Shown here: positions 2,173 through 29,007 of the stretch, piece after piece
How the letters are laid out: each line of letters starts with the position of its first letter
Position numbering within the stretch: position 1 is the first letter of the stretch
From: a virus
Lineage: Duplodnaviria > Caudoviricetes
DNA: 64,000 nt
Direction: 5' to 3' (one strand)
IMG/VR virus record: IMGVR_UViG_3300020577_009596
Coordinates: 37,557 to 101,556 of that record
Made by a program: the position numbers and the translations under genes
The notes under the pieces: model-generated
Database searches by the model: none
The model's input: only the letters and a program-made list of their open reading frames with translations
What the model was told of the DNA's origin: nothing

Positions 2173-4428
2173 TCATGACTTGTCGACCTCCTCCAGGAGG
2201 CGGCGGACCCGGTCGGTGAGCACCCACCTCGGCCGCTCGCCCAGCCCGCTCGCGGTCGTGCTCGGCTCGGTCACGTCCGCCGCCCCGATCTTCTTGAGAA
2301 ACCGGAGCAGGTCCCGGCAGCGGCCGTCCGAGCTGACCGACGGGGTCACGGCGGTGAGATACTTGACCTGCTTGCCGAGGAGCCCCGACGGGTCCTCCTT
2401 GCTCTTTCGAATGAGGCTCCGGGCGAGGTCGAGCGTGACCCCCGCCGCGGTGTCGAGGGCGACCTTGCGGACCCGCCGCATCACCTCCTCGTCGACCTCC
2501 GTCTTGTTGAGGACGACCGCGAGGCAGTGGGCGAGGCGGGTGATCTGGATCGCGAGGCGGGCCGGCATCTCGCGGTTGGCGACCTCCTCCTGCAGCGCAC
2601 TGGGCCGGGCACGCATGAACGAGACGAGCCGGGCGAGCTGCCCGCACCTGCGGAGCCGGTCCTCGGGGAACGTCACCCGCGAGGCGAGATCCTTGGCGTT
2701 GGTCCGCAGGTAGCCGACGTACCCGCCCGTCAGCTGCATCATCTCGACCATGTCCGGGTCGTGCTGGCTCTCCAGCGTCCCGTCGGCCTCGAAGGACATG
2801 TTGCGGTGGGCGCGGTTGACGACCCGCCAGACGATCTCGTCCTCGAGGTCCTCGTCGATCCCCGACATGATCGTGCACTTGAGGAACCGCTCGCCCAGCT
2901 CGGACTGGTCCATCTGCCGGAGGGAGTCGGTCCCGCACAGGATCCACACCATCCGGATGCCGGTGTAGTCCCGGCTCGTCATGTTCCGGGCGGAGGTGCG
3001 GCTGGAGCCGTCGTAGATGTCGCGGGCCTGGCTGAGGATCCGGCCGAGGTCGTCGGCCTTGAGGAGCGTGTCGCCGTCCTTGGTGACCAACGCCATGTCG
3101 TACAGCTTCTTGACGAGCGAGTGGTCCTCGGTCCCGTCGGCGTCGGTCTGGTAGTTGCTGTGGAACCCCTTGAACGTGCTCACCGCCTTGACGAACTTGC
3201 GGTTGATCGAGAGGGCCTCGCACAGCACAGTCTTTCCTGTCGACGGCGGCGAGATGATCATGGGCCAGATCGGGTCGCCGAGCAGCTTGGTCGACGCGAT
3301 CGAGGCCAGCATGACGGAGAACGCCACGTCGAGCCCGTCCGTCCACCGCATCGCCTTCCGGCAGGCCGTCACGAGGCTCCTCCAGTTGTCGCACGGCTTG
3401 CAGTGGATCTCGACGTCGCCCTCCGCCGCGGGGGTCTCGCCGTCCGGGAGCCGCTCGCCAGGAACGAACGCGGACGGAACCGGCTTGACCCGCTCGAGCA
3501 GGCCGCCGAGGATCCGTACCCGGTCGGCCGCGTCGGTCCCGTCCCGCAGGGCGTCCCGGAGGTCGTAGCCGGAGGGCACGTCGGGGTCGAACCCGAGGTC
3601 GCCCCAGCGGAGGTAGCGGACCTCCCGTGGGCACTCGTCCGCGGCCCCGAGGATGCCGACCGCCCGCTTCATCGCCGCGAACCCGGACGGCTCGATCGTC
3701 CGCCCCTCGTGCTCGCGGGGGTGGTCCGAGTCGAACATCAGGCTCACCCGCTTGCCGCCGAGGAGCGGAGCCCACCGCTTCAAGGGCTCGCCCACCGACC
3801 CGCAGCCGGGGATCGCCATCACGTTCACCTGCCGGGCCAGCGTCGACCCGCTCGTCGTGTACGCGAGGCCGTCCGAGTCCCTCCGGGCGTTGCCCATCGC
3901 CTCCTGCAGGGCCATCCCGTCCCACGGCCCCTCGACGACCCAGACCTCCTGCCGCTTGGCGTCCCACGCCGACCGGTGGAAGCCGTGGCCGAGGGTCGGG
4001 GTCGGGTAGAGCGTGCCCTTGCCGGTGACCCGGTCGCGGACGTACTTGTAGAGCTGGACCAGCTTCCCCTCGGCGTTGTAGCCTGGGAGCAGCGGGGTTT
4101 GGGTCCGGTCGAACCGCACGCCCCACTCGCGGAGCGTCTCCCACCGCAGCAGCCCGCGGCCCTCGGCGAGCGTCCGGTACAGGGACTCGTCCTGGCTCGC
4201 CCCCTCCCACACGGCGCGGACGAACGTGGTCGCGTTCCCGGCTCCCTTCTCATTTCCCGTCCCGCAGACGAAGCACTTGAATATCCCGGTCTTGACCTCG
4301 ACCCGGAGCTTCTTGGCCTTCCCGCAGAACGGGCACTCGCCGGTCGCCCACTCCGCGTCCCCTTCGTGCTCGAGTCGGACTCCGTGGAACGTGTAGGGCT
4401 TGAGCATCTTGGGCACTTCCGTCGTCAT
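2173..4428 (-). CDS. DNA primase-helicase (zinc finger + TOPRIM + P-loop ATPase)
   Basis: CPFC...CFVC zinc finger; TOPRIM VVEGPWDGMAL and MFDSD; Walker A SPPSTGKT. Confidence 0.85.
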   Translation of the reverse strand: MTTEVPKMLKPYTFHGVRLEHEGDAEWATGECPFCGKAKKLRVEVKTGIFKCFVCGTGNEKGAGNATTFVRAVWEGASQDESLYRTLAEGRGLLRWETLREWGVRFDRTQTPLLPGYNAEGKLVQLYKYVRDRVTGKGTLYPTPTLGHGFHRSAWDAKRQEVWVVEGPWDGMALQEAMGNARRDSDGLAYTTSGSTLARQVNVMAIPGCGSVGEPLKRWAPLLGGKRVSLMFDSDHPREHEGRTIEPSGFAAMKRAVGILGAADECPREVRYLRWGDLGFDPDVPSGYDLRDALRDGTDAADRVRILGGLLERVKPVPSAFVPGERLPDGETPAAEGDVEIHCKPCDNWRSLVTACRKAMRWTDGLDVAFSVMLASIASTKLLGDPIWPMIISPPSTGKTVLCEALSINRKFVKAVSTFKGFHSNYQTDADGTEDHSLVKKLYDMALVTKDGDTLLKADDLGRILSQARDIYDGSSRTSARNMTSRDYTGIRMVWILCGTDSLRQMDQSELGERFLKCTIMSGIDEDLEDEIVWRVVNRAHRNMSFEADGTLESQHDPDMVEMMQLTGGYVGYLRTNAKDLASRVTFPEDRLRRCGQLARLVSFMRARPSALQEEVANREMPARLAIQITRLAHCLAVVLNKTEVDEEVMRRVRKVALDTAAGVTLDLARSLIRKSKEDPSGLLGKQVKYLTAVTPSVSSDGRCRDLLRFLKKIGAADVTEPSTTASGLGERPRWVLTDRVRRLLEEVDKS

Positions 4429-4455: not shown

Positions 4456-6993
4456 TCACGCCGTAGCAGTCGCTATTCTCAAGAGGTCCGTCAGTGAATC
4501 ACGAACTCGGTCCGCTGTCCAAGCTACCTCTGCCAGCCGCCGACGTTGGGCAGATGCGAGTGAACGTAGACCGATCTCACCCAGTCGTTCTACCGCCGAC
4601 CGGTCGCTCGCCTTGAGATATGGGTCACCGAGGCAGGCAGCCTCAGCCGGGTCCGCATTCAGTACACAGCCCGCGTCTGCAGCCATCAAGTACCGTACTC
4701 GCCACCATCCGCTCCCGGCGTGAGGGTGCGCCGGGCTGATCACCCCCCACGCTCGTTCGTAGACGGTGAACAGTTCTGACTCTGGGAGCCGAGGCTGCGC
4801 GTTCTCACCGGCAGGGCCGATACCGCCCTCGCTGTGGTCTGAGTTGCCGTAACCTTCGACCGGCCACGTCGACGCAGTGAGCGGCTTACGGAGTAACGAC
4901 GCCTGTACCCATCGCTTCTCCTTACTGCCCGCGTAAGTCCTGTCGTACCTCAACGCGAATGGCGTCGGATCTACGCTGACGACGACGTCCGACGGGATCC
5001 CGAGGAGTGAGACATCACCGTCACCGAGGACCGGGACCAGTACCGATCTCTGCCATCTCTCGGTCATACTGATGACGGTCTCGTGAACGATCGTCTTCGT
5101 TCTCTGATCGATGTCAGATCCGCGTAGTCTGAACAGTCTCTCCGCTGACCTGGCGCACGTCTGTAGTCCTGATATCAATTCGCCGACTTGCCAGTCGTCG
5201 ATAGCGACTACTGCGTCGGATCGTTGCGACAACGCCCACGCCGCGCCGTGAAAGTAGTTCGACGTGATCGAGTTCGGCTTGTTAAGACACGCGACGACAG
5301 CGTCATAGGCTGACAGGTCTTCTCCGGGCGTCACGGCTCGCCAGTCCACCGCATAGCCCATCGACTCGAACGCGGCGGCCCAGCAAGACGCTGCGGTGAC
5401 GATCTTGAGCTGAGTCTTCTTCGATCCGACTTGCATCGGCGTCGAGCCGGTCAGTAGCAGGGTCGGCTTCCCGTAACCGTCGAACCGCCTTATCGTTGCG
5501 GTCCCCAGCGTCTCGCGCGGTTGGGGCGTCCTCGTCACGACTTTCTTCGGCCACGGCGGGACGTCGGCCGTCCCGGCCTCTACGAGTTTCTTGTAGTTGT
5601 AGTAGACGTCGTTTACGCGAGTGGTACGACCTTCCCAGTTTGCGTGGACTAGTTCTACCAGTCGCTCGGGCGAGTACTGACCAGTCATCCATAGACGTCG
5701 GATGAACTCGCCAGACCCTTCGCGGATCTTCGGGCGCTCCGGGTCGCCGTCGTCCCGAACCGTAGGAGACGAGACGATCGGCTCAGGGTCCGACCGCCGC
5801 GAGGTCTTCGTGGGCCGTCGACTATCTCGCTGAGCGACCGCGATGGACGTCTCGAGGCAACTATCCAGAGTCGACGAAGAATCGGAGTCGGCGTAGCTGG
5901 CCGTCAGGTCGATCGCGTCCAGTCCAGGGCGTCTCAGATCGACTACCGTGACGGTCTGGCCATAGTCTACTGAGGACGCTGCCATCGCGGCCCGTACGGA
6001 CGTCGCGAGCCACTCACCGACGTTTGGCATGACCGCCCGCGCGAGTAGTGACGCGTGACCTCCCGGCGACCCTTCGAGCCAGAAGTCTTGAGGGTATCCG
6101 CACAAGGCTCGCATCTCACGCGTCCCTACGAACCTGTCCTGTTCAGGGTGCGCGTAGAAGTTACCGATGAACGCTCCCATCGTCTCGTCGTGACGGAGCC
6201 GTCGGCAGTTGAAACTCGGACGGCCCGACACCTTTCCTTGGGCATTCCGCGTCGGGTTCTCGACCGTCCTGTCAAACACGTCAGAGAGACGTTCGCCGGG
6301 TCGGCACTGAGGTATCCACTGAGACGGGTTCGCCCTACCTTTGGACGACTTCCCGCACTCGTACTCGCCTGGATCGTCTCCGACTGACGCGAGGACCTCG
6401 CCTACCGACGGCGGGTCTGCGAAGTCGAAGTCGAATCGTAAGTCCAGTTCTGGGCGATAAGCCACGAAGAAGAATCGTTTACGGGACTGAGGGAGCCCAG
6501 TCCACTTGGCGTCGATCAGTAAGTGAACGACCGAGTAGCCGTTCGCGGTAGCTTTCAGGGTGAAGGCGTCGACGACTTCCCTCCCTTTGGTGTAAGCCTG
6601 GCATACCGACTCGAGAGCAAACACCTTCGGCCGAACGACATCGAACACTCGGAACGCCCGATACCAGCAACCGAGACGCGGGTCTTCCCTCCACGCTTCC
6701 GGCCCCCGCGTCGTACTGATCCCCGCGCTACTAAAGATGGCACACGGCGGGTTCGACACGAGCAAGTCGGTCCGTCCCGCAAACTCCTCGGGAGACCAGT
6801 TCTCGCTTCCCACCCTGACGTCGAGGTCGGGCCAATTCGCCTTGGCCGTCGCGACCCCATAGTCGGTGTCCTCGAGATGAGCGAGGACGTCGAACCCCGC
6901 CGCCTTGACCCCGACGGTGAACCCCCCGGCGAAGATGTGAACTCCCAAGGCGGTGGGGCGTCTCTCCACAGACTTCTTCACGAACGGCGGCAT
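4456..6993 (-). CDS. fusion of DNA cytosine-C5 methyltransferase (N-terminal) and putative GT-B/BGT-like glycosyltransferase (C-terminal)
   Basis: Start MPPFVKK at 6993 after GGAGG. C5-MTase motifs HIFAGGF (I), SNPPCAIFS (IV), ALESV (VI), QSRKRFFF (VIII), ARAVMPNVG (X). C-terminal LLLTGST...IDDWQ...SPAHPHAGSGWWRVRY resembles phage DNA glycosyltransferases (less certain). Confidence 0.75.
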   Translation of the reverse strand: MPPFVKKSVERRPTALGVHIFAGGFTVGVKAAGFDVLAHLEDTDYGVATAKANWPDLDVRVGSENWSPEEFAGRTDLLVSNPPCAIFSSAGISTTRGPEAWREDPRLGCWYRAFRVFDVVRPKVFALESVCQAYTKGREVVDAFTLKATANGYSVVHLLIDAKWTGLPQSRKRFFFVAYRPELDLRFDFDFADPPSVGEVLASVGDDPGEYECGKSSKGRANPSQWIPQCRPGERLSDVFDRTVENPTRNAQGKVSGRPSFNCRRLRHDETMGAFIGNFYAHPEQDRFVGTREMRALCGYPQDFWLEGSPGGHASLLARAVMPNVGEWLATSVRAAMAASSVDYGQTVTVVDLRRPGLDAIDLTASYADSDSSSTLDSCLETSIAVAQRDSRRPTKTSRRSDPEPIVSSPTVRDDGDPERPKIREGSGEFIRRLWMTGQYSPERLVELVHANWEGRTTRVNDVYYNYKKLVEAGTADVPPWPKKVVTRTPQPRETLGTATIRRFDGYGKPTLLLTGSTPMQVGSKKTQLKIVTAASCWAAAFESMGYAVDWRAVTPGEDLSAYDAVVACLNKPNSITSNYFHGAAWALSQRSDAVVAIDDWQVGELISGLQTCARSAERLFRLRGSDIDQRTKTIVHETVISMTERWQRSVLVPVLGDGDVSLLGIPSDVVVSVDPTPFALRYDRTYAGSKEKRWVQASLLRKPLTASTWPVEGYGNSDHSEGGIGPAGENAQPRLPESELFTVYERAWGVISPAHPHAGSGWWRVRYLMAADAGCVLNADPAEAACLGDPYLKASDRSAVERLGEIGLRSLASAQRRRLAEVAWTADRVRDSLTDLLRIATATA

Positions 6994-7472
6994 GCGGTCC
7001 CTCCCAGGACTGTCTCGGACAAGAGGTCTCTCAGAGCGGCGACCCGACGCGGGTCGTTCCACCAGCGGTTCAGGCCTGACGGGTGGGGCACCGGGACTAC
7101 CGGGCGGCCCAGAGCCGGGGCGTGGACGGTCCGACCGTAGACCTCGGCGAGGGGGTTCCCCCTCCGCACCGCGCTCACGGCCGCGAGGGCGAGCCCTCCC
7201 GCGACGTACACGACCGGCCTCTCGGCGACGACGTCGACCAGTCTCGTCGCGACGCGAGCCGCGAGGTCCGCGTCCCACGGGTCGCCCTGAGACCCCGGCG
7301 GGTGGACGTTCAGACGGTCGCAGGCGTCGAGACTGAGGCCGATCCTGGCCAGCTTGACGCCGTCGGCCTCGTCGAACGCTCCGTCCCCGACGCACGCGGT
7401 CGCCCACTCGAGGGCGTCCCACTCCCTCGCCGACGGGCGGTTCCGCCTCTCGCCGATCAGGAGCGGTCTCAC
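6978..7472 (-). CDS. uracil-DNA glycosylase superfamily-like protein
   Basis: GTG start overlapping the upstream stop; LLIGE near the N-terminus and VPHPSGLNRWWN near the C-terminus. Confidence 0.6.
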   Translation of the reverse strand: MRPLLIGERRNRPSAREWDALEWATACVGDGAFDEADGVKLARIGLSLDACDRLNVHPPGSQGDPWDADLAARVATRLVDVVAERPVVYVAGGLALAAVSAVRRGNPLAEVYGRTVHAPALGRPVVPVPHPSGLNRWWNDPRRVAALRDLLSETVLGGTACRRS

Positions 7473-7933
7473 AGCCTCTCCCTCCAGCTCGCGACGACGA
7501 CTCCGGCCCGCCTCAGCACGTCGAGGCCCTCGGGCAGCCGGTACTCGTCCCGGTACAGGACGGCGGCGACCGACCCGCTGTTGACGATCGCCCCCGCACA
7601 CTGCTCGCAGGGCGACGCGGTGACGATCAGGACGAGGTCGGTCCCCGGCAGTCGCGGCTTGCTCAGCGCGGACGCCTCGCCGTGGCAGCACCCGCATAGC
7701 CCCGGCGAGTCGCGACGGCAGCCGTCGTTCGGCAGACCGGCGGGGGGGCCGTTGTACCCCACCGCGGCGACCGACGACAGGTCCGAGGTCACGGCCACGC
7801 AGCCGACCTGAAGTCGCCTGCAGGTCGACAGGGCCGCGAGGCTCTCGGCCAGCCCGGCGAACGCCCGCAGCTTGGCCCTCAGCCGGTCGTCTCCGGGAGT
7901 CCTCCCCGACAGGTAGTCGAGCGTCCTGCTCAC
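7469..7933 (-). CDS. dCMP deaminase
   Basis: STCRRLQVGCV, GYNGPPAG, CHGEASAL (HxE), SPCEQC (PCxxC). Confidence 0.9.
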   Translation of the reverse strand: MSRTLDYLSGRTPGDDRLRAKLRAFAGLAESLAALSTCRRLQVGCVAVTSDLSSVAAVGYNGPPAGLPNDGCRRDSPGLCGCCHGEASALSKPRLPGTDLVLIVTASPCEQCAGAIVNSGSVAAVLYRDEYRLPEGLDVLRRAGVVVASWRERL

Positions 7934-8271
7934 GGCGAGCCCTCCTCGACCTTCACTCCCGACTTGGCGGCGAGGTCCTTGACGAGCGCGTCGCCGAGGA
8001 TCGCGTAGTTGGCCAGGTCGACGAACCGGCCGTGGATCGACTCGGAGGACACCTTGCCGTCCTTGCTGTACCGCATGATCGCCGTCACGTGCTTCATCAT
8101 CAGCACCATCCAGGCCTGGAACGGCGTGCAGCCGCTCGCCTGGGACAGCTCGTAGTAGTTCCGCATCGCGTCGTCCGTGCCCGCGCTGTAGTCCGCGTTC
8201 TTGGCGGCAGTGACGGCCCGCATCTCCTCGGTGAACGCGAGGACGTGGGCGGCGTAGTCCGGGTGGGTCAT
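7930..8271 (-). CDS. nucleotide-modification-associated domain 1 (DUF1599-like) protein
   Basis: AKNADYS...DAMRNY...KH...ESIHGRFVDLANY pattern. Confidence 0.65.
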   Translation of the reverse strand: MTHPDYAAHVLAFTEEMRAVTAAKNADYSAGTDDAMRNYYELSQASGCTPFQAWMVLMMKHVTAIMRYSKDGKVSSESIHGRFVDLANYAILGDALVKDLAAKSGVKVEEGSP

Positions 8272-8663
8272 CGCGGGAACACCTCCGAGAGCAGGCCGAC
8301 GTTGTCGGCGTGAGTGGGGGCGACCCAGCCCTCGGGCTTGACGAGGTCGGGGTGTCCGAACCGGCTGGGACGCTTGGGGTTCGAGCCCGCCATCTTACTC
8401 GAGTTCGCGGCCATGACGCGGGACCAGGCCTCGCCGACGTCGACTCCGTAGAGGTCGAGCGTGCCGACCGCCACGACGCACAGGTCAATCAGGGCGTCCA
8501 CGGCGTCACAGGCCGTCGTCGCGGCCTCGAGCTCCCCCAGCTCCTCCCTGAGGAACGCGACCCGAAACCGGAGGAAGTCGGCCAGGAGGGCCGGATCCAT
8601 CCCCGAGACGGTGATCCCGAACCTCTCGTGCATGAGGTGTAAGTCCTTGTGCCAGCTCGTCAT
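8268..8663 (-). CDS. MazG-like/all-alpha NTP pyrophosphatase
   Basis: FLREELGEL...AVDALIDL...VMAANSSK...DLVKPEGW. Confidence 0.8.
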   Translation of the reverse strand: MTSWHKDLHLMHERFGITVSGMDPALLADFLRFRVAFLREELGELEAATTACDAVDALIDLCVVAVGTLDLYGVDVGEAWSRVMAANSSKMAGSNPKRPSRFGHPDLVKPEGWVAPTHADNVGLLSEVFPR

Positions 8664-8725
8664 GAGGCCAGACCTCCGTGAACTTCAGAGAAAATTGATC
8701 CAGTGCGCTGTACTTCAACGAGTCA

Positions 8726-8747
8726 CAGGTTATAGTATTATAACCTG
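8726..8747. promoter_or_regulatory. near-perfect palindrome with -10-like boxes on both strands at a divergent junction
   Basis: CAGGTTATAGTATTATAACCTG lies between divergent starts at 8663(-) and 8811(+). Confidence 0.65.
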
Positions 8748-8810
8748 AGGCGAACGGGCGACCCGACCGGCCCGCCGCCCCCCACAGACCAGGTCGGCCA
8801 GGAGACCGAA

Positions 8811-9311
8811 ATGAGCCAGGAGACCGAGACCGCCCAAGCCACCGTGACTGACAAGGCCGCAGCCGCCGGGATGACCGTCAAGGACGGAGTGCTCCACGGC
8901 AAGAACGGTACCCCGATCGGCAAGGTTGCGACCGAGTCGTCCAAGAAGACCGACCCGACGCCGAAGACGACCTCGCCCAAGCAGTCGTCGCCCAAGCCAA
9001 AGACTTCCAAGAAGACTCCCGCCGTCACGGCGAAAGTCCGTAGCGTCGGCGACACGGACATGAGCCCGACCCAACGACGCCTCGCGGTGATCAAGGCGAT
9101 GCGGAAGATCGGCGCGGTGTCCGCGACTACGGCCGCGACCGCAGACCTCCTCGCCGAGAAATCCGGTCTCACTCGATTCGACGTCTACGGGCAGTTGTAT
9201 CACGCGAATCCCCTGCAGAAGAACGGGTTCGTCAAGCAGGTCCAGGTCGAGGGCGTCCGCGGGCTGTCCTACCACCTGACCGCCAAGGGCCAGAAGTCCG
9301 ACCCGGAATGA
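8811..9311 (+). CDS. putative winged-helix DNA-binding protein with Lys/Thr/Pro-rich N-terminus
   Basis: AGGAG RBS; C-terminal TADLLAEKSGLTRFDV...GFVKQV...YHLTAKG looks like a wHTH. Confidence 0.6.
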   Translation: MSQETETAQATVTDKAAAAGMTVKDGVLHGKNGTPIGKVATESSKKTDPTPKTTSPKQSSPKPKTSKKTPAVTAKVRSVGDTDMSPTQRRLAVIKAMRKIGAVSATTAATADLLAEKSGLTRFDVYGQLYHANPLQKNGFVKQVQVEGVRGLSYHLTAKGQKSDPE

Positions 9312-9371
9312 CCCGACCGGACGCCGACTCACCGACCTCCCTCCAGGGAGGTCCCTCTCGAGGAAACCGCA

Positions 9372-9572
9372 ATGACGACTCTCACGACCGACCTCGCCGA
9401 GGAGTTCTCCGTCTGGAGCGGCGGGCACGAGTTCGACGAGGTCCCTCCCGACGAGCGGGAGTGGTTCGCCGACGGGCGGTCCGAGGAGGACGTCCGCGCG
9501 GTGTTCGCCGACCAGCCCGAGGACGTCCTCGAGGGGCTCGTCCTACGGCTGGCGGTTGGCGACGAACAGTGA
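9372..9572 (+). CDS. small acidic hypothetical protein
   Basis: GAGG RBS; phage-like codon usage. Confidence 0.5.
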   Translation: MTTLTTDLAEEFSVWSGGHEFDEVPPDEREWFADGRSEEDVRAVFADQPEDVLEGLVLRLAVGDEQ

Positions 9573-10244
9573 CCAGGTCCTCGGGAACAGTCCCGACAGG
9601 ATCCGGCCCACGGCGTCCGCATAGCAGCGGATCTCCCACTGGGCCTTCTCGTCCATCCGCAGGGTCAGGAAGGCGAGCCAGTTCCGCAGGTTCGCCGACG
9701 CCCTCATCCGCGAGTACCGACCCATGTTGACCGCGAGGCGGGCGACCTCCTTCGGGACGCCTCGCCTCAGCCCGCTCTGGTACGTCTCCTCTGCCCTCCG
9801 ATACAAGTCCGCCAGCTCGGCCAGCCACTCGCGAGCCGACCCCTCCGTGACCGCCTCCGACCCCCTGACCGCGCCCGCCTGCCGGTTCGTCCCGTGGACG
9901 GACAGGCACCGCTCGACCGTCGGCTCGTAGTTCACGTCCGGAATCGGCGTGTACCGCCCGCTGAGCTCGTTGTAGCTCTGCGTTCGGTGGCGGTGCCACT
10001 CGCGGAAGACGACGATCGGGGCCTGGACCTCGATCACCGCCCCGGCCATCTCGAACGGCGTCGCGTGTCGGTTCCGGTAGAGGTACTCGAGCAGGCCCGC
10101 GTCGCCCCTGGGGTGCCCCTCGTAGGGCTCCCACGACACGAATCCGGACTCAGTCGACATCCTCGCCGCCTCGATCACTCGCTCGTCGCTGCCCCAGCTC
10201 TCGACGAGCTCGACGTAGCCGTGGTCCAGAATCTGCTCCCTCAC
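9543..10244 (-). CDS. thyX: FAD-dependent thymidylate synthase ThyX
   Basis: LDHGYVELV, HATPFE, signature RHRTQSYNELSGRY, NLRNWLAFLTLR...AQWEIR; GTG start coupled to the upstream stop. Confidence 0.95.
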   Translation of the reverse strand: MREQILDHGYVELVESWGSDERVIEAARMSTESGFVSWEPYEGHPRGDAGLLEYLYRNRHATPFEMAGAVIEVQAPIVVFREWHRHRTQSYNELSGRYTPIPDVNYEPTVERCLSVHGTNRQAGAVRGSEAVTEGSAREWLAELADLYRRAEETYQSGLRRGVPKEVARLAVNMGRYSRMRASANLRNWLAFLTLRMDEKAQWEIRCYADAVGRILSGLFPRTWSLFVANRQP

Positions 10245-11251
10245 CGCTGCCTCCTCTCGAGCCACGCTGTCGCTGCCGCACGCCAGTCGTCGGCCATGAT
10301 CTGAGCAGCGAACTCTGCCGCGAGATCGGACAAACCGTCCCGCCACGCCCGATGGGCTAGTAGCGTCGGCTGAGCCACGTCTTGTAGGAACGGCTCATCG
10401 AACCTCTCCGGCGGTAGTCTCGCGTGGGAGTAAATCTCGACGAGTCGCAGTAGCTCCTGATCGAACGTCCTCGACTCGCGAACGAGCGGGACAGTCGCAG
10501 GATACGGCTGGTTAGCTGGGCCGGTATCCTCCCACGCCAGCCACCTCTCTGGATCGAAGTTGTTCAGGTAAACGTGCAGATTGTTCGAGACCTGCCAGTA
10601 CCGACCGACTCCGATTCCAAGTTGAGCCGCAACGTACTCCTGGAGGAAGCTGAAGGTGCAGTAGTCCTCTCCCAGGGTCCCCCAGATCAAGTCGTTCGAT
10701 CGGTTGAAGACTGTGGCGTCGAGCAGACCCTCGTCGTTGACCGCAAGCAGGACGCTTAGGTTACAGCACACGTCTTTAGATGAGTCGACCTTAGCCAGGT
10801 CGTTCTCAACGTCCCACATCTGAAGTACGGCGCGGCGAGATTCCGGCTTGTCGTGAAGATGTCTTACCAGGATGTTCAATTGATCGACGAAGCGGTCCTC
10901 AGTATGAGACGCCAGCGCAGTCCGCCACCGCCTGCCGTACGAGCCGTTCGACGTGACCCCGTCGTCAGAGAACGAGGCGTACCGCTTAACATAGCGAGCG
11001 GGTGCAGCGACGTCGTCGCGTCCAGCCAAGAGCCAGAGCGAGTGATAGAGGTGAAACATGGGGTTGGCGTCTCGTTTCGCATTGAGTAAGACCCTTTCGC
11101 GAGGGTGACTGTACTCAATGATCACCGGCTCAGTGACTTGAATGACTCTCCCTGCTCGAGAATCAGACTCTCTGGTTGGATACTCTTTTGAATAAAACCC
11201 TCTCACAACCCCACTGAATGCGTCATTGATGTTTCGGAACTTGAGATGCAC
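10241..11251 (-). CDS. thymidylate synthase-like dNMP (hydroxy)methyltransferase, predicted dCMP-specific
   Basis: RDANPMFH, YGRRWR, RRAVLQMWD, KDVCCN, NRSNDLIWGTLGED, SNNLHVY; GTG at 11251 after AGGAG. Confidence 0.85.
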   Translation of the reverse strand: MHLKFRNINDAFSGVVRGFYSKEYPTRESDSRAGRVIQVTEPVIIEYSHPRERVLLNAKRDANPMFHLYHSLWLLAGRDDVAAPARYVKRYASFSDDGVTSNGSYGRRWRTALASHTEDRFVDQLNILVRHLHDKPESRRAVLQMWDVENDLAKVDSSKDVCCNLSVLLAVNDEGLLDATVFNRSNDLIWGTLGEDYCTFSFLQEYVAAQLGIGVGRYWQVSNNLHVYLNNFDPERWLAWEDTGPANQPYPATVPLVRESRTFDQELLRLVEIYSHARLPPERFDEPFLQDVAQPTLLAHRAWRDGLSDLAAEFAAQIMADDWRAAATAWLERRQR

Positions 11252-11867
11252 GTTCGCTCCTCTTCTTAGCAGACTCACTGAGTTTTCGACGGTGCTCAGC
11301 CGAGCAAGCCTTACCTTTTCTAGGTGGATTTGTCACGTTCCTGACGGCAGCTCGCTCAGCAGACTTCTTACGACACAACTCGCTAGGCTTACGCCCTCTC
11401 AACGACTCACTGATCAACTTCTTCGTCTCTTCTGAGAGTGAGGATCCTCGGCGTATAGTATTACCCTTCATTCTCTCTGACCTACGGGATCTCTCGTCGT
11501 CCGACACTTTACGGTTCTTCGCTGCTTCGCTTATCCGACGTAGTCCGTCCTCAGTATGCATGCCTTTAAACCCGCCGACGCCGGTCGCCGTATTGAACTT
11601 CGGCTTGAGAAGAGCTATCAGCTCTCGCTCTCTAGTTTGAGCTTGTTCGTCAGTATCAAACGGTTCGATCGACCATTCGATCGCATACCTGTCAGTTTCG
11701 AGTATCGCAACGAGACCGGGCGGTCTACCAGACCATGATGACTTGCCTGTAGGACGACCGCGGTTCCCGCGACCCTTACCTACCCATAGAACGTCTTCAC
11801 CGATTCGCCACACGTACACGTACGGCTGCTTAGGGTCTTCGAGAGGTCTCTTTCTAGGCGTCGGCAT
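11223..11867 (-). CDS. GIY-YIG-like homing endonuclease with NUMOD3 repeats
   Basis: YVYVW...WVGKG...R, E..LI...PKFN; HTEDG, SEETKKLISES and SAEHRRKLSES NUMOD3 repeats; AT-richer than flanks. Confidence 0.75.
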   Translation of the reverse strand: MPTPRKRPLEDPKQPYVYVWRIGEDVLWVGKGRGNRGRPTGKSSWSGRPPGLVAILETDRYAIEWSIEPFDTDEQAQTRERELIALLKPKFNTATGVGGFKGMHTEDGLRRISEAAKNRKVSDDERSRRSERMKGNTIRRGSSLSEETKKLISESLRGRKPSELCRKKSAERAAVRNVTNPPRKGKACSAEHRRKLSESAKKRSERASQVPKHQ

Positions 11868-11921
11868 AGTTAAACCTCTAGCCACCTCTATAGTAACCAG
11901 AAAGTTTAACTGAAACCAATT

Positions 11922-14021
11922 TTATAGCTTGAGTCTCCGGTGCTCGTCTCGGTCCCAGCTCGTCGGGCAGTACCCGACCGACACACGCAGCGGGACCCCG
12001 ACGTCCTCGCCGCTCCGCTCCATGAGACGCTGGAGGCGGCGGGCCTTGGGAAGGTTCCGACGACCGCCCGCGGGCATCTGGAAGACGATCTCGTCGTGGA
12101 CCTGGAGCGCGATCGTCGCGTCGAACCCGTCCCGACGCCACTCGCTCAGCTGCTCCTCGCAGCGGATCATGGCCTTGCTCGTACACCACATCGCGGTGGA
12201 CTGGACGTGGTAGTTCAGGGGGAGCGTAGGGCTTATCCTACCCCACTCCGACCGCGAGCACATCACGGGGTAGCCCCTGGCGGACCCGATCGACCGGTCG
12301 GGGATCGTCTCGACGTACCCGTGCCGGTTGGCGAACGAGACCCACCGGTCCATCAGGGCGAACAGCTTGGTCAGTCGTCCGCGGATCAGGCCGTACGCTC
12401 CCGGCTTGTGGGCGGTGGTGTCGAACTTCTTCTCCATGCAGCCGTAAATCAGGGCGAACCCGGCGTTCTTACACCACTTGTACCAGGTCGACTCGTACCG
12501 TCGCTTGAACTCCCCGCGCTGGTCGGCCAGCGGCCAGAACAGGTCGGGATACATCGCGCTCGCGTTGAGCAGGTGGTACGAGCCGAAGTACGGCGGGTCG
12601 TCGGGCCGCTCGAACAGCTCGATCATCGCCTCCTCCTCCGACTCGTAGCCGGGGATCCGGAGCTCGATGTTCTCGTAGTCCATCGGCCACCACTCGTATC
12701 CCGGCGGCGGCCCGAACCCGTAGCGGAGGTTGAACCCCTCCTTCTTGCTGATGTTCTGCTCGTTCGGGTTCGAGCTGCTGAACCGCAGCGTACCCGTCCC
12801 GGTCGCGTTCAGGTTTGGATTGAGACGACAGGTATCCCCGTCGTTGAGAGGAACCCAGAACCGCCGGTACCCTTCCATGTACTGGACGGCCGTGTCCCGG
12901 CTCCGCTTGTCTCCTATTGCCTTTACGAAGTCGAGCTGCGGTCCTTCAGTCAGAGTCTCGACATAGGTCTGCATAGCCTCCTTGTTCAGGCTCGGCGACC
13001 CGCTGTCGGTCCTCGCCGCGATCGGGAGGGCGAGGTACTGCCGACCCTTCCCGAGCGTACCGGGGACCTTCTTCCCCCGCTCGTCCCGCAGCGAGTCGCC
13101 GAAGCAGAAGTGGAGGAGACTGTCGTTGTTGCCGGACTTCGGGAGGTCGAGGTCGTACCCGAGCGAGGCCGCGATCTCCCGGCAGCGGTCACCCAGGTCG
13201 GCCCCCTCCCGCGAGTACCGGACGACCATCTCCTCGAGACGGCTCCGGCTCAGCGTGACGCCCCGCCGCTCCATCCCGAACACGACCGGTAGCAGCCTCC
13301 GCCGCTCCTGATAGATCTCCCAGAGGCCCCGCTCCCTCAGCCTCCGCTCCATGACCGGCCAGAGCATGACCGTCGACTCGGAGTCCTCGTTCGCGTACTG
13401 GGCCGTCACCGTCCGGTACGGGTGGTCCATCGGCAGCTTGTGGCGGTTCGCGTAGGCACGGGGCAGCCAGGTGTCCAGCTTCCACGGGCTCTCGTCCTCG
13501 CCGCCCTTCGCCCGCTTGGCCTTGTTCGCCTTGCAGGAGGGCATGTCGGCCCGGCCCTCCTTGGCGAGAGCCCAGGTCGGGTGCTCCCGGCGGACCCTCC
13601 CCCGGACCTCGACGACGACGTCCCGCATCCGCTTCTCGGACGGCTCTATGTCGATCCCGAGATAAAACAGGACCATATCGGTCAAATTGTGAGGTTGATT
13701 ACTAGCTAACAGATGTCCAGCTAGTAAGGTGTCCTCTACCTTCTCCCAATATGTGTCTATGTTAACCAGATCCCACAACCCTATCGAGTCGAGAGCGTGA
13801 GTATCGAAGCCGATGTTTTGACCTACGATTCGTTCTTGCTTTGTCAGCAAATCAGCAATCTTGACTAGGTCTTCTTGAGGGATATTCGGGGTTCGGGTGA
13901 TCGGATTTACCGGCCAATCCCAAAACACAGGGTCTTTACCGTACTCACATGTCGTCACGAGGAACGGCCTCGCCCCATGCCTCCAGTCAGACCCCGTAGT
14001 TTCACAGTCCAAAGCCATCAT
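11922..14021 (-). CDS. polA: family A DNA polymerase with 3'-5' exonuclease domain
   Basis: ExoI LDCETTG, ExoII GQNIGFD, TLRFSSSNPNEQNI, motif A DYENIELR, motif B KNAGFALIYG, motif C QVHDEI. Confidence 0.95.
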   Translation of the reverse strand: MMALDCETTGSDWRHGARPFLVTTCEYGKDPVFWDWPVNPITRTPNIPQEDLVKIADLLTKQERIVGQNIGFDTHALDSIGLWDLVNIDTYWEKVEDTLLAGHLLASNQPHNLTDMVLFYLGIDIEPSEKRMRDVVVEVRGRVRREHPTWALAKEGRADMPSCKANKAKRAKGGEDESPWKLDTWLPRAYANRHKLPMDHPYRTVTAQYANEDSESTVMLWPVMERRLRERGLWEIYQERRRLLPVVFGMERRGVTLSRSRLEEMVVRYSREGADLGDRCREIAASLGYDLDLPKSGNNDSLLHFCFGDSLRDERGKKVPGTLGKGRQYLALPIAARTDSGSPSLNKEAMQTYVETLTEGPQLDFVKAIGDKRSRDTAVQYMEGYRRFWVPLNDGDTCRLNPNLNATGTGTLRFSSSNPNEQNISKKEGFNLRYGFGPPPGYEWWPMDYENIELRIPGYESEEEAMIELFERPDDPPYFGSYHLLNASAMYPDLFWPLADQRGEFKRRYESTWYKWCKNAGFALIYGCMEKKFDTTAHKPGAYGLIRGRLTKLFALMDRWVSFANRHGYVETIPDRSIGSARGYPVMCSRSEWGRISPTLPLNYHVQSTAMWCTSKAMIRCEEQLSEWRRDGFDATIALQVHDEIVFQMPAGGRRNLPKARRLQRLMERSGEDVGVPLRVSVGYCPTSWDRDEHRRLKL

Positions 14022-14560
14022 AGAAGATTCCTCCAAGTCCTTTTCTTGACAGCGTCTGCTAAAGCATGTTCAGAGACTTTGGGCTTAGTTACGGCGTAGA
14101 TACGCGAAATAGACCATCCTTTCGAGTACAAGAATCTAGCTATTTTGACTTGTTCCTCGGTCATCCTCGCGTTGCCGTTCGCCGCCCCAGGACAAGGAGT
14201 ACCCGTACCGGCTCTACTTTGACGTCCCTTTGACACCATGTCGTCAGAATTATCTTGGACCGTACCTTGGAATAAGTGATCCGGTCTCACGCAGCGGGGG
14301 GTGTCGCATTTATGAAGAACGAACAGCCCCGACTTGATGACATTCCCGGTTAGTTCGTAGGCTATCCTATGTGCTTTCTTTTCCCTGAAATGTCCGTAGC
14401 CGTTGACGGTGGCTGCGATCCACACCCAGCACTTACCGTGAACCGGATGGATTGGACCGTTCTCCTTATCTACTCTCATCCAGAACAGTCGCTCAACGTC
14501 AGTACCGCGATTGTTGGAGTGCTTCGAGAACTCTCCACGAACGTAGACACCCTTCGGCAT
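14018..14560 (-). CDS. HNH homing endonuclease
   Basis: CWVW...AHRIAY...VLHKCDTPRCVRPDHLFQGTVQDNSDD; C-terminal HTH. Confidence 0.9.
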   Translation of the reverse strand: MPKGVYVRGEFSKHSNNRGTDVERLFWMRVDKENGPIHPVHGKCWVWIAATVNGYGHFREKKAHRIAYELTGNVIKSGLFVLHKCDTPRCVRPDHLFQGTVQDNSDDMVSKGRQSRAGTGTPCPGAANGNARMTEEQVKIARFLYSKGWSISRIYAVTKPKVSEHALADAVKKRTWRNLL

Positions 14561-17067: not shown

Positions 17068-17208
17068 CCCTAGCCTCCTTTTAAGACGCTACGATGAAGT
17101 TTACTATAAACTTCGTCACCCAGTTACGAGATTCATTACCTTTTCGTATGAAGGGTCTTCGAGATACTCAGGTAACTCGATCCCTTTTGGAAGCCTGAAT
17201 TTCGTCAG
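16529..17208 (-). mobile_element. HNH cassette carrying a recoded replacement 3' end of its target gene
   Basis: bounded by direct repeat TTCGTCAG (16521-16528 and 17201-17208); removal restores the original gene. Confidence 0.75.
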
Positions 17209-17985
17209 GAAGGTGTCGTGCGGGGCGGTCCGGAGACAGTACACCACGCCGGGCACCCGCTCCTGCGACCGCATCTCCTTACCCCCGATCGTCCGGACCC
17301 GCTCCTCCGTCCGACCCTTCTTGAACATCTGGACCACGAAGTCGCACGCCGGGGCGAGCCACCCCGCGACGGACGGGCTCAGTGCCGCGCCGACCGTCGG
17401 CCGGAGCAGGTCCGGGTCGCCGCCGTCCTCCCGGCCTCCGAACGTCCGCTGCTGGGCGACGATCACGACGTTCGCGTCGAGGTTGAGGAGGGCGCGGAAC
17501 AGGGTCTTGAGCTGCAACGCCTGCTGGCCGTACTGCTGCTGGCTCGCCATCCCCCAGCCCTTCTGGGCCGGGATCTCGTCGAGTCCGAGGATCTCCTTCA
17601 GGGCGTCGTCGGCCAGCCCGCTGGCGTGGTCGAGCACGACCGTCTGGAACTTGCCCGTCTGCCGGACGTGCTCGCACAGCTCCTTGACCTCGTTCGTCTG
17701 CCGGAGGACGACCTTCGTGATCTTCCCCCGCTCGGAGTGGGGGACCGACTGGAGCTCGCCGGGACGCATGCTCCCGCTGCTCACGATCCACAGCACTGGG
17801 CCGGGGAACGTCGAGGCGAACACGGTCTTGCCGCTTCCGCTCTCGCCGTACACCAGCATCTTCATCGGGCCGACCGAGTCCTCGACGGGCTCGAGACGGC
17901 TGAGCACCGGGCCGTCCATCGACGGTCGCGGGCGGGTCTCAGTCTTGGTCACGACCGGGGCCGTGGCCCTCTTCAGCGGGGGCAT
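17116..17985 (-). CDS. Sak4-like/AAA_24 ATPase (recombination/annealing protein)
   Basis: Walker A YGESGSGKT, Walker B TVVLD, VVIVAQ; next to an exonuclease gene. Confidence 0.8.
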   Translation of the reverse strand: MPPLKRATAPVVTKTETRPRPSMDGPVLSRLEPVEDSVGPMKMLVYGESGSGKTVFASTFPGPVLWIVSSGSMRPGELQSVPHSERGKITKVVLRQTNEVKELCEHVRQTGKFQTVVLDHASGLADDALKEILGLDEIPAQKGWGMASQQQYGQQALQLKTLFRALLNLDANVVIVAQQRTFGGREDGGDPDLLRPTVGAALSPSVAGWLAPACDFVVQMFKKGRTEERVRTIGGKEMRSQERVPGVVYCLRTAPHDTFLTKFRLPKGIELPEYLEDPSYEKVMNLVTG

Positions 17986-18319
17986 TCAGCTCCTCCTTGG
18001 GTTCTGGGTCCTTGTGGGCTCGGATCATCATCGGCCGCCAGTTCTGACAGCCACAGGACTCGGAGTAGACCTGCAGCTTCTCCTTGCCGCAGTACTGGCA
18101 CCGCCACATGACGGGCTTCGGCTCTGCGGCCCTCTGGGCGGGCGTCGGCTCGACCTCGTACTCGCTATCTCCAATACGCAGCTCGACGTGCTCGACGCCG
18201 TTCCACTCTTTGACGACGTCCACCTGAGGAGTCCATAGTCCCCACTCACAGTCGTCAACCGCTACTCCCATCTCAGGCGGTAGGGTCTTCAGCTTCTCGA
18301 TCAGCTCTGCTACGGTCAT
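17939..18319 (-). CDS. hypothetical protein with C-terminal Cys cluster
   Basis: MTVAELIEKL; CQYC...CGC; GGAGG RBS. Confidence 0.6.
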   Translation of the reverse strand: MTVAELIEKLKTLPPEMGVAVDDCEWGLWTPQVDVVKEWNGVEHVELRIGDSEYEVEPTPAQRAAEPKPVMWRCQYCGKEKLQVYSESCGCQNWRPMMIRAHKDPEPKEELNAPAEEGHGPGRDQD

Positions 18320-21170: not shown

Positions 21171-21740
21171 TCAGTTCGATCCCAGGACGTGCTCCTCGAC
21201 CGCGTTGCGGACCTGGACCACCGCACGCTGGAACATCAGCCCCTGCTGGGCGATGTTGGCCCGGCCGATCGCGGCGGGGTGGACGGTGTGGATCGTCGGG
21301 ACCTCGCGGTGCAGCTCGATCCGGACGTACCGGCCCGTCATCAGGTGGTGCTGGGCGACCTCGCCTAGGCAGACGATCAGCTTTGGGTCGCACAGCTCGA
21401 CGATCGCTCGGAGCCGGGGCGAGCACTTCTGGACCGCGACGTCGTCGGGCTTGGTCACCTTGCGGCCGTCCTCGCCGACCGGGCAGCAGCCCACGACGTT
21501 CGCGATCGCCCAGCGTACCCCCTCCGGGACCGCCTCGGCGATGATGTCGTCCTGCAGCTTGCCCGCGGGTCCGATCATCGGGATGCCGAACACGTCCTCG
21601 CTGTGTCCGGGAGCCTCGCCGACGAACAGCACGTCGCACGGGACGGACCCGCGGACCATGCACACGTTCTTGCGGCCCTCGGCGAGGTGGCAACGCTGGC
21701 AGTCTCGCCAGTCTGAGTAGAGCTGCTGGAGCGGGGTCAT
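21171..21740 (-). CDS. uracil-DNA glycosylase family 4 (Fe-S)
   Basis: CQRCHL, FVGEAPG.SED, GPAGKL, NVVGCCP, HPAA. Confidence 0.88.
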   Translation of the reverse strand: MTPLQQLYSDWRDCQRCHLAEGRKNVCMVRGSVPCDVLFVGEAPGHSEDVFGIPMIGPAGKLQDDIIAEAVPEGVRWAIANVVGCCPVGEDGRKVTKPDDVAVQKCSPRLRAIVELCDPKLIVCLGEVAQHHLMTGRYVRIELHREVPTIHTVHPAAIGRANIAQQGLMFQRAVVQVRNAVEEHVLGSN

Positions 21741-27008: not shown

Positions 27009-27488
27009 ATGAAGGTCTACATCATGCGGGGCCTGCCCGGCGCGGGCAAGTCGAGATGGACTCGCCAGCGAGTGCTCGAGGACGGGTCGAGCGTCTGCGT
27101 CGTCTCGGCCGACAGCTACCACTACGTCTCCCAGCCTCCGAGGGCCGACGGGACTCTCGTGCCGCCCAAGTACGAGTTCCGCCCCGAGAACGCGAGCCGC
27201 GCCCACTCGGGATGCCTTCGCGAGTTCGTCGAGGCTATCCAGCAGTCCTGGGGCGTCGTTATCGTCGACAACACCAACACGACGGCGGTCGAGCTGGCCC
27301 CCTACGTCCGGCTGTGCGAGGCGTTCGGCATCGAGTACGAGATCGTGTTCCTCCGAGTGCCGTTCGGCCTCGCCTGCAAGAGGAACGTCCACGTCGTGCC
27401 GGAGGCGACGATCTGGAGCATGTTCCAGAACCTGCTGTCGGAGCGTCTCCCGGCGTGGTGGAAGGTCAAGTTCGTTGAGGAGCGGTGA
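27009..27488 (+). CDS. AAA_33/polynucleotide kinase-like P-loop protein
   Basis: MRGLPGAGKS, SAD, IVDNTN, RNVHVVP. Confidence 0.85.
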   Translation: MKVYIMRGLPGAGKSRWTRQRVLEDGSSVCVVSADSYHYVSQPPRADGTLVPPKYEFRPENASRAHSGCLREFVEAIQQSWGVVIVDNTNTTAVELAPYVRLCEAFGIEYEIVFLRVPFGLACKRNVHVVPEATIWSMFQNLLSERLPAWWKVKFVEER

Positions 27489-28512: not shown

Positions 28513-29007
28513 ATGCAGACGTTCCTCCCCTACTCCTGCTACCAGCGGTCGGCCGACGCCCTCGACCGGGTCCGCCGCTGGAACCAGTGCATCGAGGTCC
28601 GGCGGTTGGTCAGGGCCCTCGAGCAGGGTCCGCTGTGCCTCTACGACCTGACCGAGAGGCGGTTCGTCTACGGCCCGGTCGTCGGCTCCCGCCCGCCCGC
28701 GGGGTCCGCCTACCGCAAGACGCCATGGTACGGCCACCCGGCCGCGGTCATGTGGCGGGGCCGCGTCGAGAGCCTGAAGCTGTACCACGACGTGATGCTC
28801 GCGACCGTCCTGAGGCTCAAGACTCACGACGTCAAGGCGTTCGGCCCCTACGGCGCGGACCCGGCCGCGACTCCCCCGACCTGGCTCGGTCGCGAGGACC
28901 TCCACTCGTCACACAGGTCGAATCTGCTCCGCAAGGACCCCGCGTTCTACGGCTCGTACGGCTGGACCGAGCCGAGCGACCTTGAGTACGTCTGGCCGAA
29001 CCCCTGA
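28513..29007 (+). CDS. pyrimidine-dimer DNA glycosylase-like (MSMEG_6728 family) protein
   Basis: MQTFLPY, HPAAVMWRG, PPTWLG, HSSHRSNLLRKDP..Y, YVWP. Confidence 0.85.
   Translation: MQTFLPYSCYQRSADALDRVRRWNQCIEVRRLVRALEQGPLCLYDLTERRFVYGPVVGSRPPAGSAYRKTPWYGHPAAVMWRGRVESLKLYHDVMLATVLRLKTHDVKAFGPYGADPAATPPTWLGREDLHSSHRSNLLRKDPAFYGSYGWTEPSDLEYVWPNP

Follow-up and report, generated by a model that had tools for sequence, protein, structure and literature searches.

The nearest described plan for the gene cluster reported here is the pathway of phage T4 for glucosylated 5-hydroxymethylcytosine (5hmC), which comprises the dCTPase gp56, the deoxycytidine monophosphate (dCMP) hydroxymethylase gp42, the deoxynucleoside monophosphate (dNMP) kinase gp1, the products of cd and td and the alpha- and beta-glucosyltransferases. 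Further systems with partial likeness are known from the thymidine-hypermodifying phages (PaMx11, the Ab18 type and the RHph phages), from Synechococcus phage S-B43 with CmoX, CmoA and CmoY (PMC12783734; PDB 8YF3), from phages that combine a C5-methyltransferase, a TET (5mYOX) enzyme and a glycosyltransferase (GT) (PMC8256090; bioRxiv 10.1101/2023.12.21.572611), and from RB69 and DLP3, whose pathway leads to arabinosyl-5-hydroxycytosine (PMC13326640). GT-B DNA glycosyltransferases are associated more often with thymidylate synthase (TS) homologs than with TET (bioRxiv 10.1101/2023.12.21.572611). In the present study, these systems were compared with a gene cluster in a stretch of 64,000 nucleotides from a virus of the Caudoviricetes (IMG/VR record IMGVR_UViG_3300020577_009596, positions 37,557 to 101,556), hereafter referred to as the window. 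The window is the final 64 kb of this linear record of 101,556 bp, for which a completeness of 82% was estimated by CheckV, and its GC content is about 65%. The cluster is located on the minus strand, and the two genes at the centre of the analysis encode a TS homolog and an 845-aa fusion protein (4456-6993) of a methyltransferase (MT)-like domain with a GT-B glycosyltransferase domain, hereafter the MT-GT fusion.

We read the cluster as a module for the replacement and decoration of cytosine that follows the T4 plan and yields 5hmC carrying a sugar, with a non-standard MT-like domain as a further part. The probability of this reading is put at roughly 0.6, and each of its substrates and products is predicted from folds, motifs and the co-occurrence of genes. 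Functionally, the parts common to T4 and the cluster are a nucleoside triphosphate (NTP) pyrophosphatase, an enzyme of the TS fold whose specificity site is Asp, a dCMP deaminase, a thymidylate synthase encoded separately, and a GT-B enzyme resembling the T4 beta-glucosyltransferase (BGT). The cluster departs from T4 in that its TS homolog falls into the long PaMx11-like lineage and not into that of gp42, the thymidylate synthase is a ThyX, the cluster has no kinase of the gp1 type, and the GT lacks detectable sequence similarity to BGT and is fused to a C5-MT-like domain that T4 does not possess. Judged by its predicted functions, the part that acts before replication is a hydroxymethylcytosine pathway like that of T4 whose enzymes stem from different lineages, and the scheme as a whole can be classed as a variant of both the T4 pathway and the TS-associated GT-B clusters of bioRxiv 10.1101/2023.12.21.572611.

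The TS homolog (336 aa; 10241-11251, in a reading frame open to 11278) matched PF00303 (6.6e-17) and phrog_5131 (1e-88). In an alignment with Escherichia coli ThyA, it carries Asp at the positions of N177, L143 and D169 and retains the catalytic Cys (C146); KDVCCN is aligned to ALAPCH, the Asp of KDVCC occupies the L143 position, and the D169 position falls within RSND. T4 gp42 likewise has Asp at all three positions, and the homologs of PaMx11 and RHph_I65 have Asn at N177 together with Asp at L143 and D169. The specificity motif accordingly reads LGEDY in the window, LGAN in PaMx11 and RHph_I65, RND in T4 and PFN in E. coli. According to Lee et al. (2026; PMC13326640), N177D is a mark of dCMP use, an acidic residue at L143, associated with water access, is a mark of a non-methyl product, and D169N marks the 5-hydroxy-dCMP synthases, all tested members of which have Asn at this position. 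The window homolog lacks the Asn that distinguishes the RB69 gp48-type 5-hydroxy-dCMP synthases. By its residues it carries the signature of a dCMP hydroxymethylase and not that of a 5-hydroxy-dCMP synthase, and among solved structures the CMP hydroxymethylase MilA is its best match (1e-22), with thymidylate synthases following at about 1e-10. The assignment as a dCMP-type enzyme, which had been made in the initial annotation, is thereby upheld.

In the RB69/DLP3 pathway, too, the TS homolog has Asp at N177 and is acidic at L143, and it is accompanied by a nucleotide kinase and by transferases of the GT-B fold. The pathway differs from the window in the D169N change, in its GTs, since the window GT has no detectable homolog in RB69-like phages, and in its arabinose-nucleotide genes. 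It was also considered that the TS homolog makes 5-methyl-dCMP, 5-hydroxy-dCMP or another product, and that the GT decorates this product or a target other than DNA. The specificity is deduced from few residues, and TS homologs with unexpected chemistry have recently been found (PMC13326640), but D169 is kept, an acidic L143 goes with non-methyl products, and 5-methylcytosine (5mC) has no hydroxyl group for a GT. This alternative is therefore regarded as very unlikely.

The nearest cultured relatives of the TS homolog, with 40-45% identity, are those of the Pseudomonas phages PaMx11 and Ab18 and of the Rhizobium RHph phages, which are annotated as thymidylate synthase or deoxyuridine monophosphate (dUMP) hydroxymethyltransferase. 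Among the 120 closest database homologs, 24 are of the Asp type at N177 and the others are of the Asn type. In a phylogenetic tree that did not include the overly distant T4 gp42 and E. coli ThyA, the window protein was placed in a clade of 15 members, all with Asp (Shimodaira-Hasegawa-like approximate likelihood ratio test, 98), which is nested among the Asn-type PaMx11-like family, and at least five Asn/Asp switches are required by the supported branches. The PaMx11, Ab18 and RHph phages have a replication module similar to that of the window, with PolA, a primase, a dCMP deaminase and an NTP pyrophosphatase. Their TS homologs are of the Asn (dUMP) type, in contrast to the clade of the window with its Asp, and the base that these phages modify is thymine. 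Neither an aGPT-Pplase nor a full 5-HMUDK was present among the annotated genes of the cluster. Mobile elements are found within modification genes of relatives; in the related locus L056 (~12900-14500), an insertion of about 250 aa directly follows the catalytic Cys of the TS homolog.

For the analysis of conservation, 73 loci were compiled, 70 of them from a pattern scan of IMG/VR and three from closely related contigs. The gene order PolA, TS homolog, MazG-like, Nmad1-like, (dCMP deaminase), uracil-DNA glycosylase (UDG)-like, MT-GT fusion, primase-helicase is kept in the four closest contigs. Within 10 kb of the MT-like domain, tblastn located a TS homolog in 58 of the 73 loci, a MazG-like NTPase in 52 and a dCMP deaminase in 45, while the fused GT was found in 46; loci without the module genes are mostly truncated. 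A P-loop kinase of 191 aa, different from the one encoded in the window, follows the MT-GT gene in 55 loci. Since the order is kept in close contigs and the core recurs in the 70 IMG/VR loci, the arrangement is not due to chance. In the related loci, all 62 TS homologs that could be read at these sites have Asp at both the N177 and the D169 position, and they comprise several lineages, one of which (in L009 and L013) is short and non-orthologous.

Fusion proteins from the databases could be aligned with that of the window over their full length at 40-60% identity. Variants were found with a family-4 UDG domain between the MT-like and GT domains, with inteins, and with the GT replaced by another C-terminal domain, for instance by a class I methyltransferase resembling UbiG or by the helical domain of the 5-hydroxymethyldeoxyuridine DNA kinase (PF18723). 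Both the GT-B and the UbiG-like partners would act on a hydroxyl group. It was considered whether the fused class I methyltransferase domains are CmoA, and this was rejected on account of their C-terminal position and UbiG-like character. Many relatives consist of the MT-like domain and the small middle domain alone (~465-520 aa, corresponding to ~56% of the query), which argues for a role of the MT-like domain of its own. The middle domain (fusion residues ~424-482; 5548-5724) is a conserved alignment block without Pfam match that is flanked by variable Pro-rich linkers.

The set also occurs in unfused form in cultured actinophages. In Gordonia phage BlueNGold (Forzavirus; L082, OP297539), the region 6959-13906 encodes a GT of the window family (gp129), MazG and, as gp121, a 432-aa "DNA methyltransferase" whose motifs read NPPCS and ESV and whose motif X position is occupied by Lys; the phage also has a second GT and, elsewhere in the genome, an Asp-type TS homolog. 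The same unfused set was found in Actinomycetia phage DSL-LC01 (L002, 11995-18329), where the methyltransferase is 35% identical to gp121 and likewise has Lys at motif X. A literature search yielded no report on the DNA of these two phages.

The C-terminal domain of the fusion (residues ~510-845; 4456-5466) gave no match in Pfam and nothing meaningful in a sequence-profile search of the PDB, and it was only by fold search that relatives of known structure were found. The AlphaFold (AF2) model, which was based on 85 homologs, shows a GT-B fold with a predicted local distance difference test score (pLDDT) of 94 and a predicted template modelling score of 0.91. The top match of this model in VIA-align was T4 BGT (Z 17.1, root-mean-square deviation 3.6, 282 residues aligned), followed by the T4 alpha-glucosyltransferase (Z 15.6), many cellular GT-B enzymes (Z 14-16) and the GT of phage HY126 (Z 13.9); in Foldseek, the template modelling score against T4 BGT was 0.61. 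The GT fold that had been postulated for this part of the protein was therefore recovered. A near-invariant DDW(Q) motif, which may hold the counterpart of the catalytic Asp D100 of BGT, follows strand 4 in the N-terminal half of the domain. The domain is a predicted DNA 5hmC glycosyltransferase. Because BGT is barely ahead of ordinary GT-B enzymes, a DNA acceptor is deduced from context and not from structure, and 5hmC as this acceptor is suggested by the fusion to a DNA enzyme together with the linkage to an Asp-type TS homolog.

In total, 551 representative homologs of the GT domain were collected, which are chiefly free-standing proteins of ~340 aa. Among cultured phages the family is represented by 38 records (Aeromonas Tulanevirus, Gordonia, DSL-LC01 and few others), none of which belongs to the relatives of RB69. 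An assignment of the domain as an RB69-type arabinosyltransferase was rejected, as the search with the GT alone found no homolog in RB69-like phages; the matches of the whole fusion in many Klebsiella, Enterobacter and Escherichia phages are due to the MT part and not to the GT. The free-standing homologs of Aeromonas phage Aes012 and Actinomycetia phage DSL-LC01 adjoin a uridine diphosphate (UDP)-galactopyranose mutase gene. In the 101-kb record, neither this mutase nor other sugar-nucleotide genes were found, and tblastn of the record gave no UDP-glucose dehydrogenase, no L028-type kinase, no second GT and no match to T4 BGT. In the related locus L009, a UDP-glucose 6-dehydrogenase-like gene (17120-18040) is located ~5 kb downstream of the MT-GT gene, which hints at a uronic-acid donor in that phage. 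A further relative (P0241, 867 aa) consists of two tandem GT-B domains and has no MT-like domain.

The N-terminal MT-like domain (fusion residues 1-345; 5959-6993) has a C5-methyltransferase fold and matched PF00145 with 1.4e-24 on residues 22-332. Its model (pLDDT 91.9) contains the complete fold with catalytic and target-recognition domains and is similar to DNMT1, M.HaeIII and M.HhaI with Z scores of 27-30 and to CmoX (8YF3) with 27.2; as all of these lie within ~3 Z units, CmoX is not separable from ordinary methylases by fold search. Among 117 relatives, the Pro-Cys nucleophile of motif IV, the Glu of motif VI, the QxRxR of motif VIII and the ribose-binding Glu are invariant. The surroundings of these residues are altered: PCQ is changed to PCA in 113 of the 117 sequences, ENV to ESV in 116 and the GN of motif X to AR in 110, and the positions of M.HhaI Q82, N120 and N304 are taken by Ala, Ser and Arg in nearly all of them. 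The family motifs are NPPCA (NPPC in 115 of 117), ESV, QxRxR and LAR(A/G)VMP, and motif I reads IFAGGF as against FxGxGG. LAGLIDADG inteins are inserted in the MT-like domain of the relatives P0003 and P0006.

The initial annotation had taken this domain for a C5-methyltransferase that acts after replication, and had suggested a genome with both 5mC and glycosylated 5hmC-like bases. The domain would then be an ordinary enzyme that uses S-adenosylmethionine (SAM) on unreplaced cytosine. Such an enzyme is suggested by the complete fold and the PF00145 match, by the conserved catalytic Cys, Glu and Arg and ribose-binding Glu, and by the fact that C5-methyltransferases are common in phages. However, the Gln of motif IV and the Asn residues of motifs VI and X are invariably lost. 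In M.HhaI, Gln82 and Asn304 flank the transferable group, and the exchange Q82A alone lowers methylation ~16-fold (PMC3526304); CmoX, which shows the same change from Asn to Arg in motif X, does not accept SAM. The strict link of the clade to Asp-type TS homologs, moreover, is hard to explain for an enzyme that requires an unsubstituted C5. The altered pocket and the strict company of dCMP-type TS genes argue against plain 5mC formation, and a genome with plain 5mC beside the sugar-bearing base is considered quite unlikely.

A closer relationship to CmoX has to be weighed as well. CmoX is a phage DNA C5-carboxymethyltransferase in which R350 binds the carboxymethyl group of carboxy-SAM (Cx-SAM); the wild-type enzyme uses Cx-SAM alone, the R350N mutant uses neither cofactor, and the substrate is unmodified cytosine (PMC12783734). 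In a full-length profile alignment with 8YF3 (5e-25), the motif X Arg of the window falls on SpCmoX R350 (LARAV against VGRMV), the Gln of motif IV is lost in both (PCA here, PCS in CmoX), an HPxEDR block is common to both, and the catalytic residues are kept. The domain might then be a C5-carboxymethyltransferase supplied with Cx-SAM by the host, which would leave 5-carboxymethylcytosine at residual cytosines beside glycosylated 5hmC. Several observations disagree with this. The SPPC motif was used to define CmoX, and CmoA is present on about three quarters of CmoX contigs (PMC12783734), whereas NPPC is found here, ESV replaces ENV, and no CmoA (TIGR00740) was detected in the 101-kb record or in the records of five relatives, four of which are at least 91% complete, although supply of Cx-SAM by the host could compensate for this. 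Furthermore, the linked dCMP-type TS genes would remove the substrate, and neither such a linkage nor a GT fusion is reported for CmoX in PMC12783734. A CmoX-type activity on residual cytosine is thus judged unlikely.

That the MT-like domain is catalytically inert and serves only as a DNA-binding, base-flipping anchor which brings the fused GT to DNA is regarded as highly improbable. It is true that the domain is fused to various C-terminal enzymes and that C5-methyltransferases flip their target base. On the other hand, no variation of the catalytic Cys, Glu and Arg is seen in 117 divergent sequences, many relatives have no effector beyond the MT-like and middle domains, the MT-like and GT genes are separate in the cultured actinophages, and T4 BGT needs no such partner. 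The retention of the catalytic residues and the frequent lack of a fused effector indicate an enzyme and not a mere anchor.

The systems that combine a C5-methyltransferase, TET and a GT share with the window a C5-MT-fold enzyme and a BGT-like GT-B enzyme in one cluster, but no TET was found in the window, the hydroxymethyl group would be supplied before replication, and the motifs of the MT-like domain are non-canonical. The absence of TET from the cluster, pointed out in the initial annotation, extends to the whole record: no TET/JBP protein (PF12851) was found there or in the five relatives' records, and in the search of the latter control genomes were matchless too, so that the sensitivity of that search is unproven. 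The idea that the cluster mixes the logic of T4 with that of the methyltransferase/TET/GT systems is not simply correct, as the MT-like part is an unexplained third element.

On the evidence of its motifs, we argue that the MT-like domain is an enzyme in its own right, whose cofactor pocket has been remodelled and which acts in an hmC context. Two chemistries are plausible: binding of flipped-out 5hmC and action on it through addition of the Cys to C6, which we consider the more likely, or, by analogy with CmoX, the use of an adenosyl cofactor as donor of an anionic group other than methyl. In the engineered C5-methyltransferase eM.SssI, the Gln of motif IV and the Asn of motif X have reportedly been altered. 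This enzyme derivatises 5hmC with thiols (PMC7176277). It is proposed, tentatively, that the NPPCA/ESV/Arg clade may be a new class of DNA-modifying enzymes on hmC DNA, which either activate the 5-hydroxymethyl group for substitution or transfer an anionic group, and which with exchangeable partners may, in numerous uncultured phages as well as in actinophages of the Gordonia Forzavirus type, yield hypermodified cytosines that have yet to be described.

Several points weigh against the proposed module and the role given to its MT-like domain. The activities of all cluster members are predictions, and the BGT score of the GT model is within ~1 Z unit of those of ordinary GT-B enzymes. A dedicated dNMP kinase is missing from the cluster, in a record that is itself incomplete. 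The invariant ribose-binding Glu suggests that an adenosyl cofactor is still bound, which is more easily reconciled with a transferase than with a reaction on 5hmC that needs no cofactor, and the motif X Arg matches CmoX, an enzyme for unmodified cytosine. If cytosine replacement were incomplete, an alkyltransferase acting on residual cytosine would also fit.

With these reservations, the following sequence of reactions is proposed for the cytosine replacement and decoration module. The MazG-like NTPase would remove dCTP, and the Asp-type TS homolog would convert dCMP to 5-hydroxymethyl-dCMP, which a kinase, either an AAA_33 protein encoded elsewhere in the genome or a host enzyme, would raise to the triphosphate for incorporation into DNA by the phage PolA. 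The dCMP deaminase and ThyX would sustain the supply of deoxythymidine monophosphate (dTMP), because the TS-fold enzyme would no longer make it. After replication, the GT-B domain would move a sugar from a nucleoside diphosphate sugar to the hydroxymethyl group, and the fused MT-like domain, as something other than a standard 5mC methylase, would act in the hmC context.

The cluster is bounded by PolA (11922-14036) and the primase-helicase (2173-4428), and all genes named in the initial annotation were recovered by profile searches on the minus strand between these two. The region had no match in cultured phages in a search at the nucleotide level, and PolA is at most 24% identical to cultured phage polymerases, with matches mainly in actinophages. 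ThyX, the flavin-dependent thymidylate synthase (9543-10244), matched PF02511 (7.9e-40) and, above the cut-off, TIGR02170 (1.4e-45); in a related locus (L011, 5923-7521) ThyX carries an HNH insertion. The MazG-like all-alpha NTP pyrophosphohydrolase (8268-8663; PF01503 1.8e-6, phrog_671 1e-17) has the MazG-like protein DR2231 as its nearest solved structure (1e-5) and is inferred to be a dCTPase. It is followed by a small Nmad1 (DUF1599)-like protein (7930-8271), whose match to PF07659 (E 0.004) is weak and below the Pfam cut-off; homologs with 61-70% identity are present in the four closest loci, and in L009 the gene directly follows the MT-GT gene. The dCMP deaminase (7469-7933, start at 7933) matched PF00383 (6.7e-14) and phrog_174 (1e-31).

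The next gene encodes a divergent protein of the UDG superfamily (164 aa; 6978-7472), for which the match to PF03167 is weak (24.5 bits against a cut-off of 24.3) and only the C-terminal HPS motif is recognisable. A canonical family-4-like UDG is also encoded in the window (21171-21740, minus strand; PF03167 2.9e-18). In relatives with a family-4 UDG domain inside the MT-GT polypeptide, such as P0003 (residues ~754-930), this domain is nearer to the canonical UDG (9e-16) than to the UDG-like protein of the cluster (0.006). A pyrimidine-dimer glycosylase resembling T4 endonuclease V is encoded at 28513-29007 on the plus strand (PF03013 1.4e-9).

Most genes of the cluster are translationally coupled, in agreement with the initial annotation. 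Overlaps of 4 nt between start and stop codons were read as GTGA or ATGA at TS/ThyX, where the GTG start of ThyX overlaps the TS stop (GTGA), at MazG/Nmad1 (ATGA), and at Nmad1/dCMP deaminase and dCMP deaminase/UDG-like, so that the deaminase gene has a GTGA overlap at either end; the UDG-like and MT-GT genes overlap by 16 nt. The coupling is interrupted once, between ThyX and MazG, by a divergent plus-strand open reading frame (ORF) of 166 aa (8811-9311) without significant family match. Its N-terminus is of low complexity and its C-terminus is possibly a winged helix (PadR 0.09); the ORF is kept at 45-55% identity in L009, L010, L011 and L013 and lies on the strand opposite to the cluster in L009. 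This ORF was absent from the initial annotation, as was a homing-endonuclease-like ORF of the NUMOD3 type (11223-11885; PF07460 1.8e-4, phrog_314 7e-13), which lies between PolA and the TS gene and likewise on the minus strand. A further candidate gene is an acidic 66-aa ORF (9372-9572, plus strand) that overlaps the 3′ end of thyX and has no family match; its GC content at third codon positions (GC3) is 0.91.

GC3 amounts to 0.68 in the TS gene and 0.72 in the MT-GT gene, as compared with 0.88-0.97 in their neighbours, and is lowest in the region in the homing-endonuclease-like ORF (0.50). The low values of all three suggest that they were recently acquired from a less GC-rich donor, and the similar values of the TS and MT-GT genes that these two came together from one source.

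Outside of the cluster, a small P-loop kinase is encoded at 27009-27488 on the plus strand (PF13671 AAA_33, 2e-13). It is the sole small Walker-A protein of this kind in the record and is a candidate nucleotide kinase for 5-hydroxymethyl-dCMP; no thymidylate kinase was found in the 101-kb record.

A fusion of an MT-like domain with a GT is not mentioned in PMC8256090 or bioRxiv 10.1101/2023.12.21.572611, and a literature search gave no description of such a fusion or of dCMP hydroxymethylases with a partner resembling a methyltransferase. Neither the clade of MT-like domains nor its fusion to a GT-B domain nor its strict linkage to Asp-type TS homologs appears to have been described in the searchable literature. 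Hypermodified phage DNA resists restriction enzymes and CRISPR nucleases, and the enzymes of hypermodification are now used as tools for epigenome mapping and DNA labelling. Against this background, the cultured actinophages with unfused versions make the question testable now by nucleoside mass spectrometry, and the MT-like domain could supply a natural enzyme for hmC-directed DNA chemistry, being altered by nature at two pocket positions that engineers mutate for the transfer of larger groups. For the phages themselves, the comparison indicates that a dUMP-hydroxymethylase lineage of thymine-modifying phages has repeatedly been switched to cytosine, and that a large uncharacterised clade with the C5-methyltransferase fold travels with the dCMP-type TS genes, where its role could add a new base to the natural DNA modifications.

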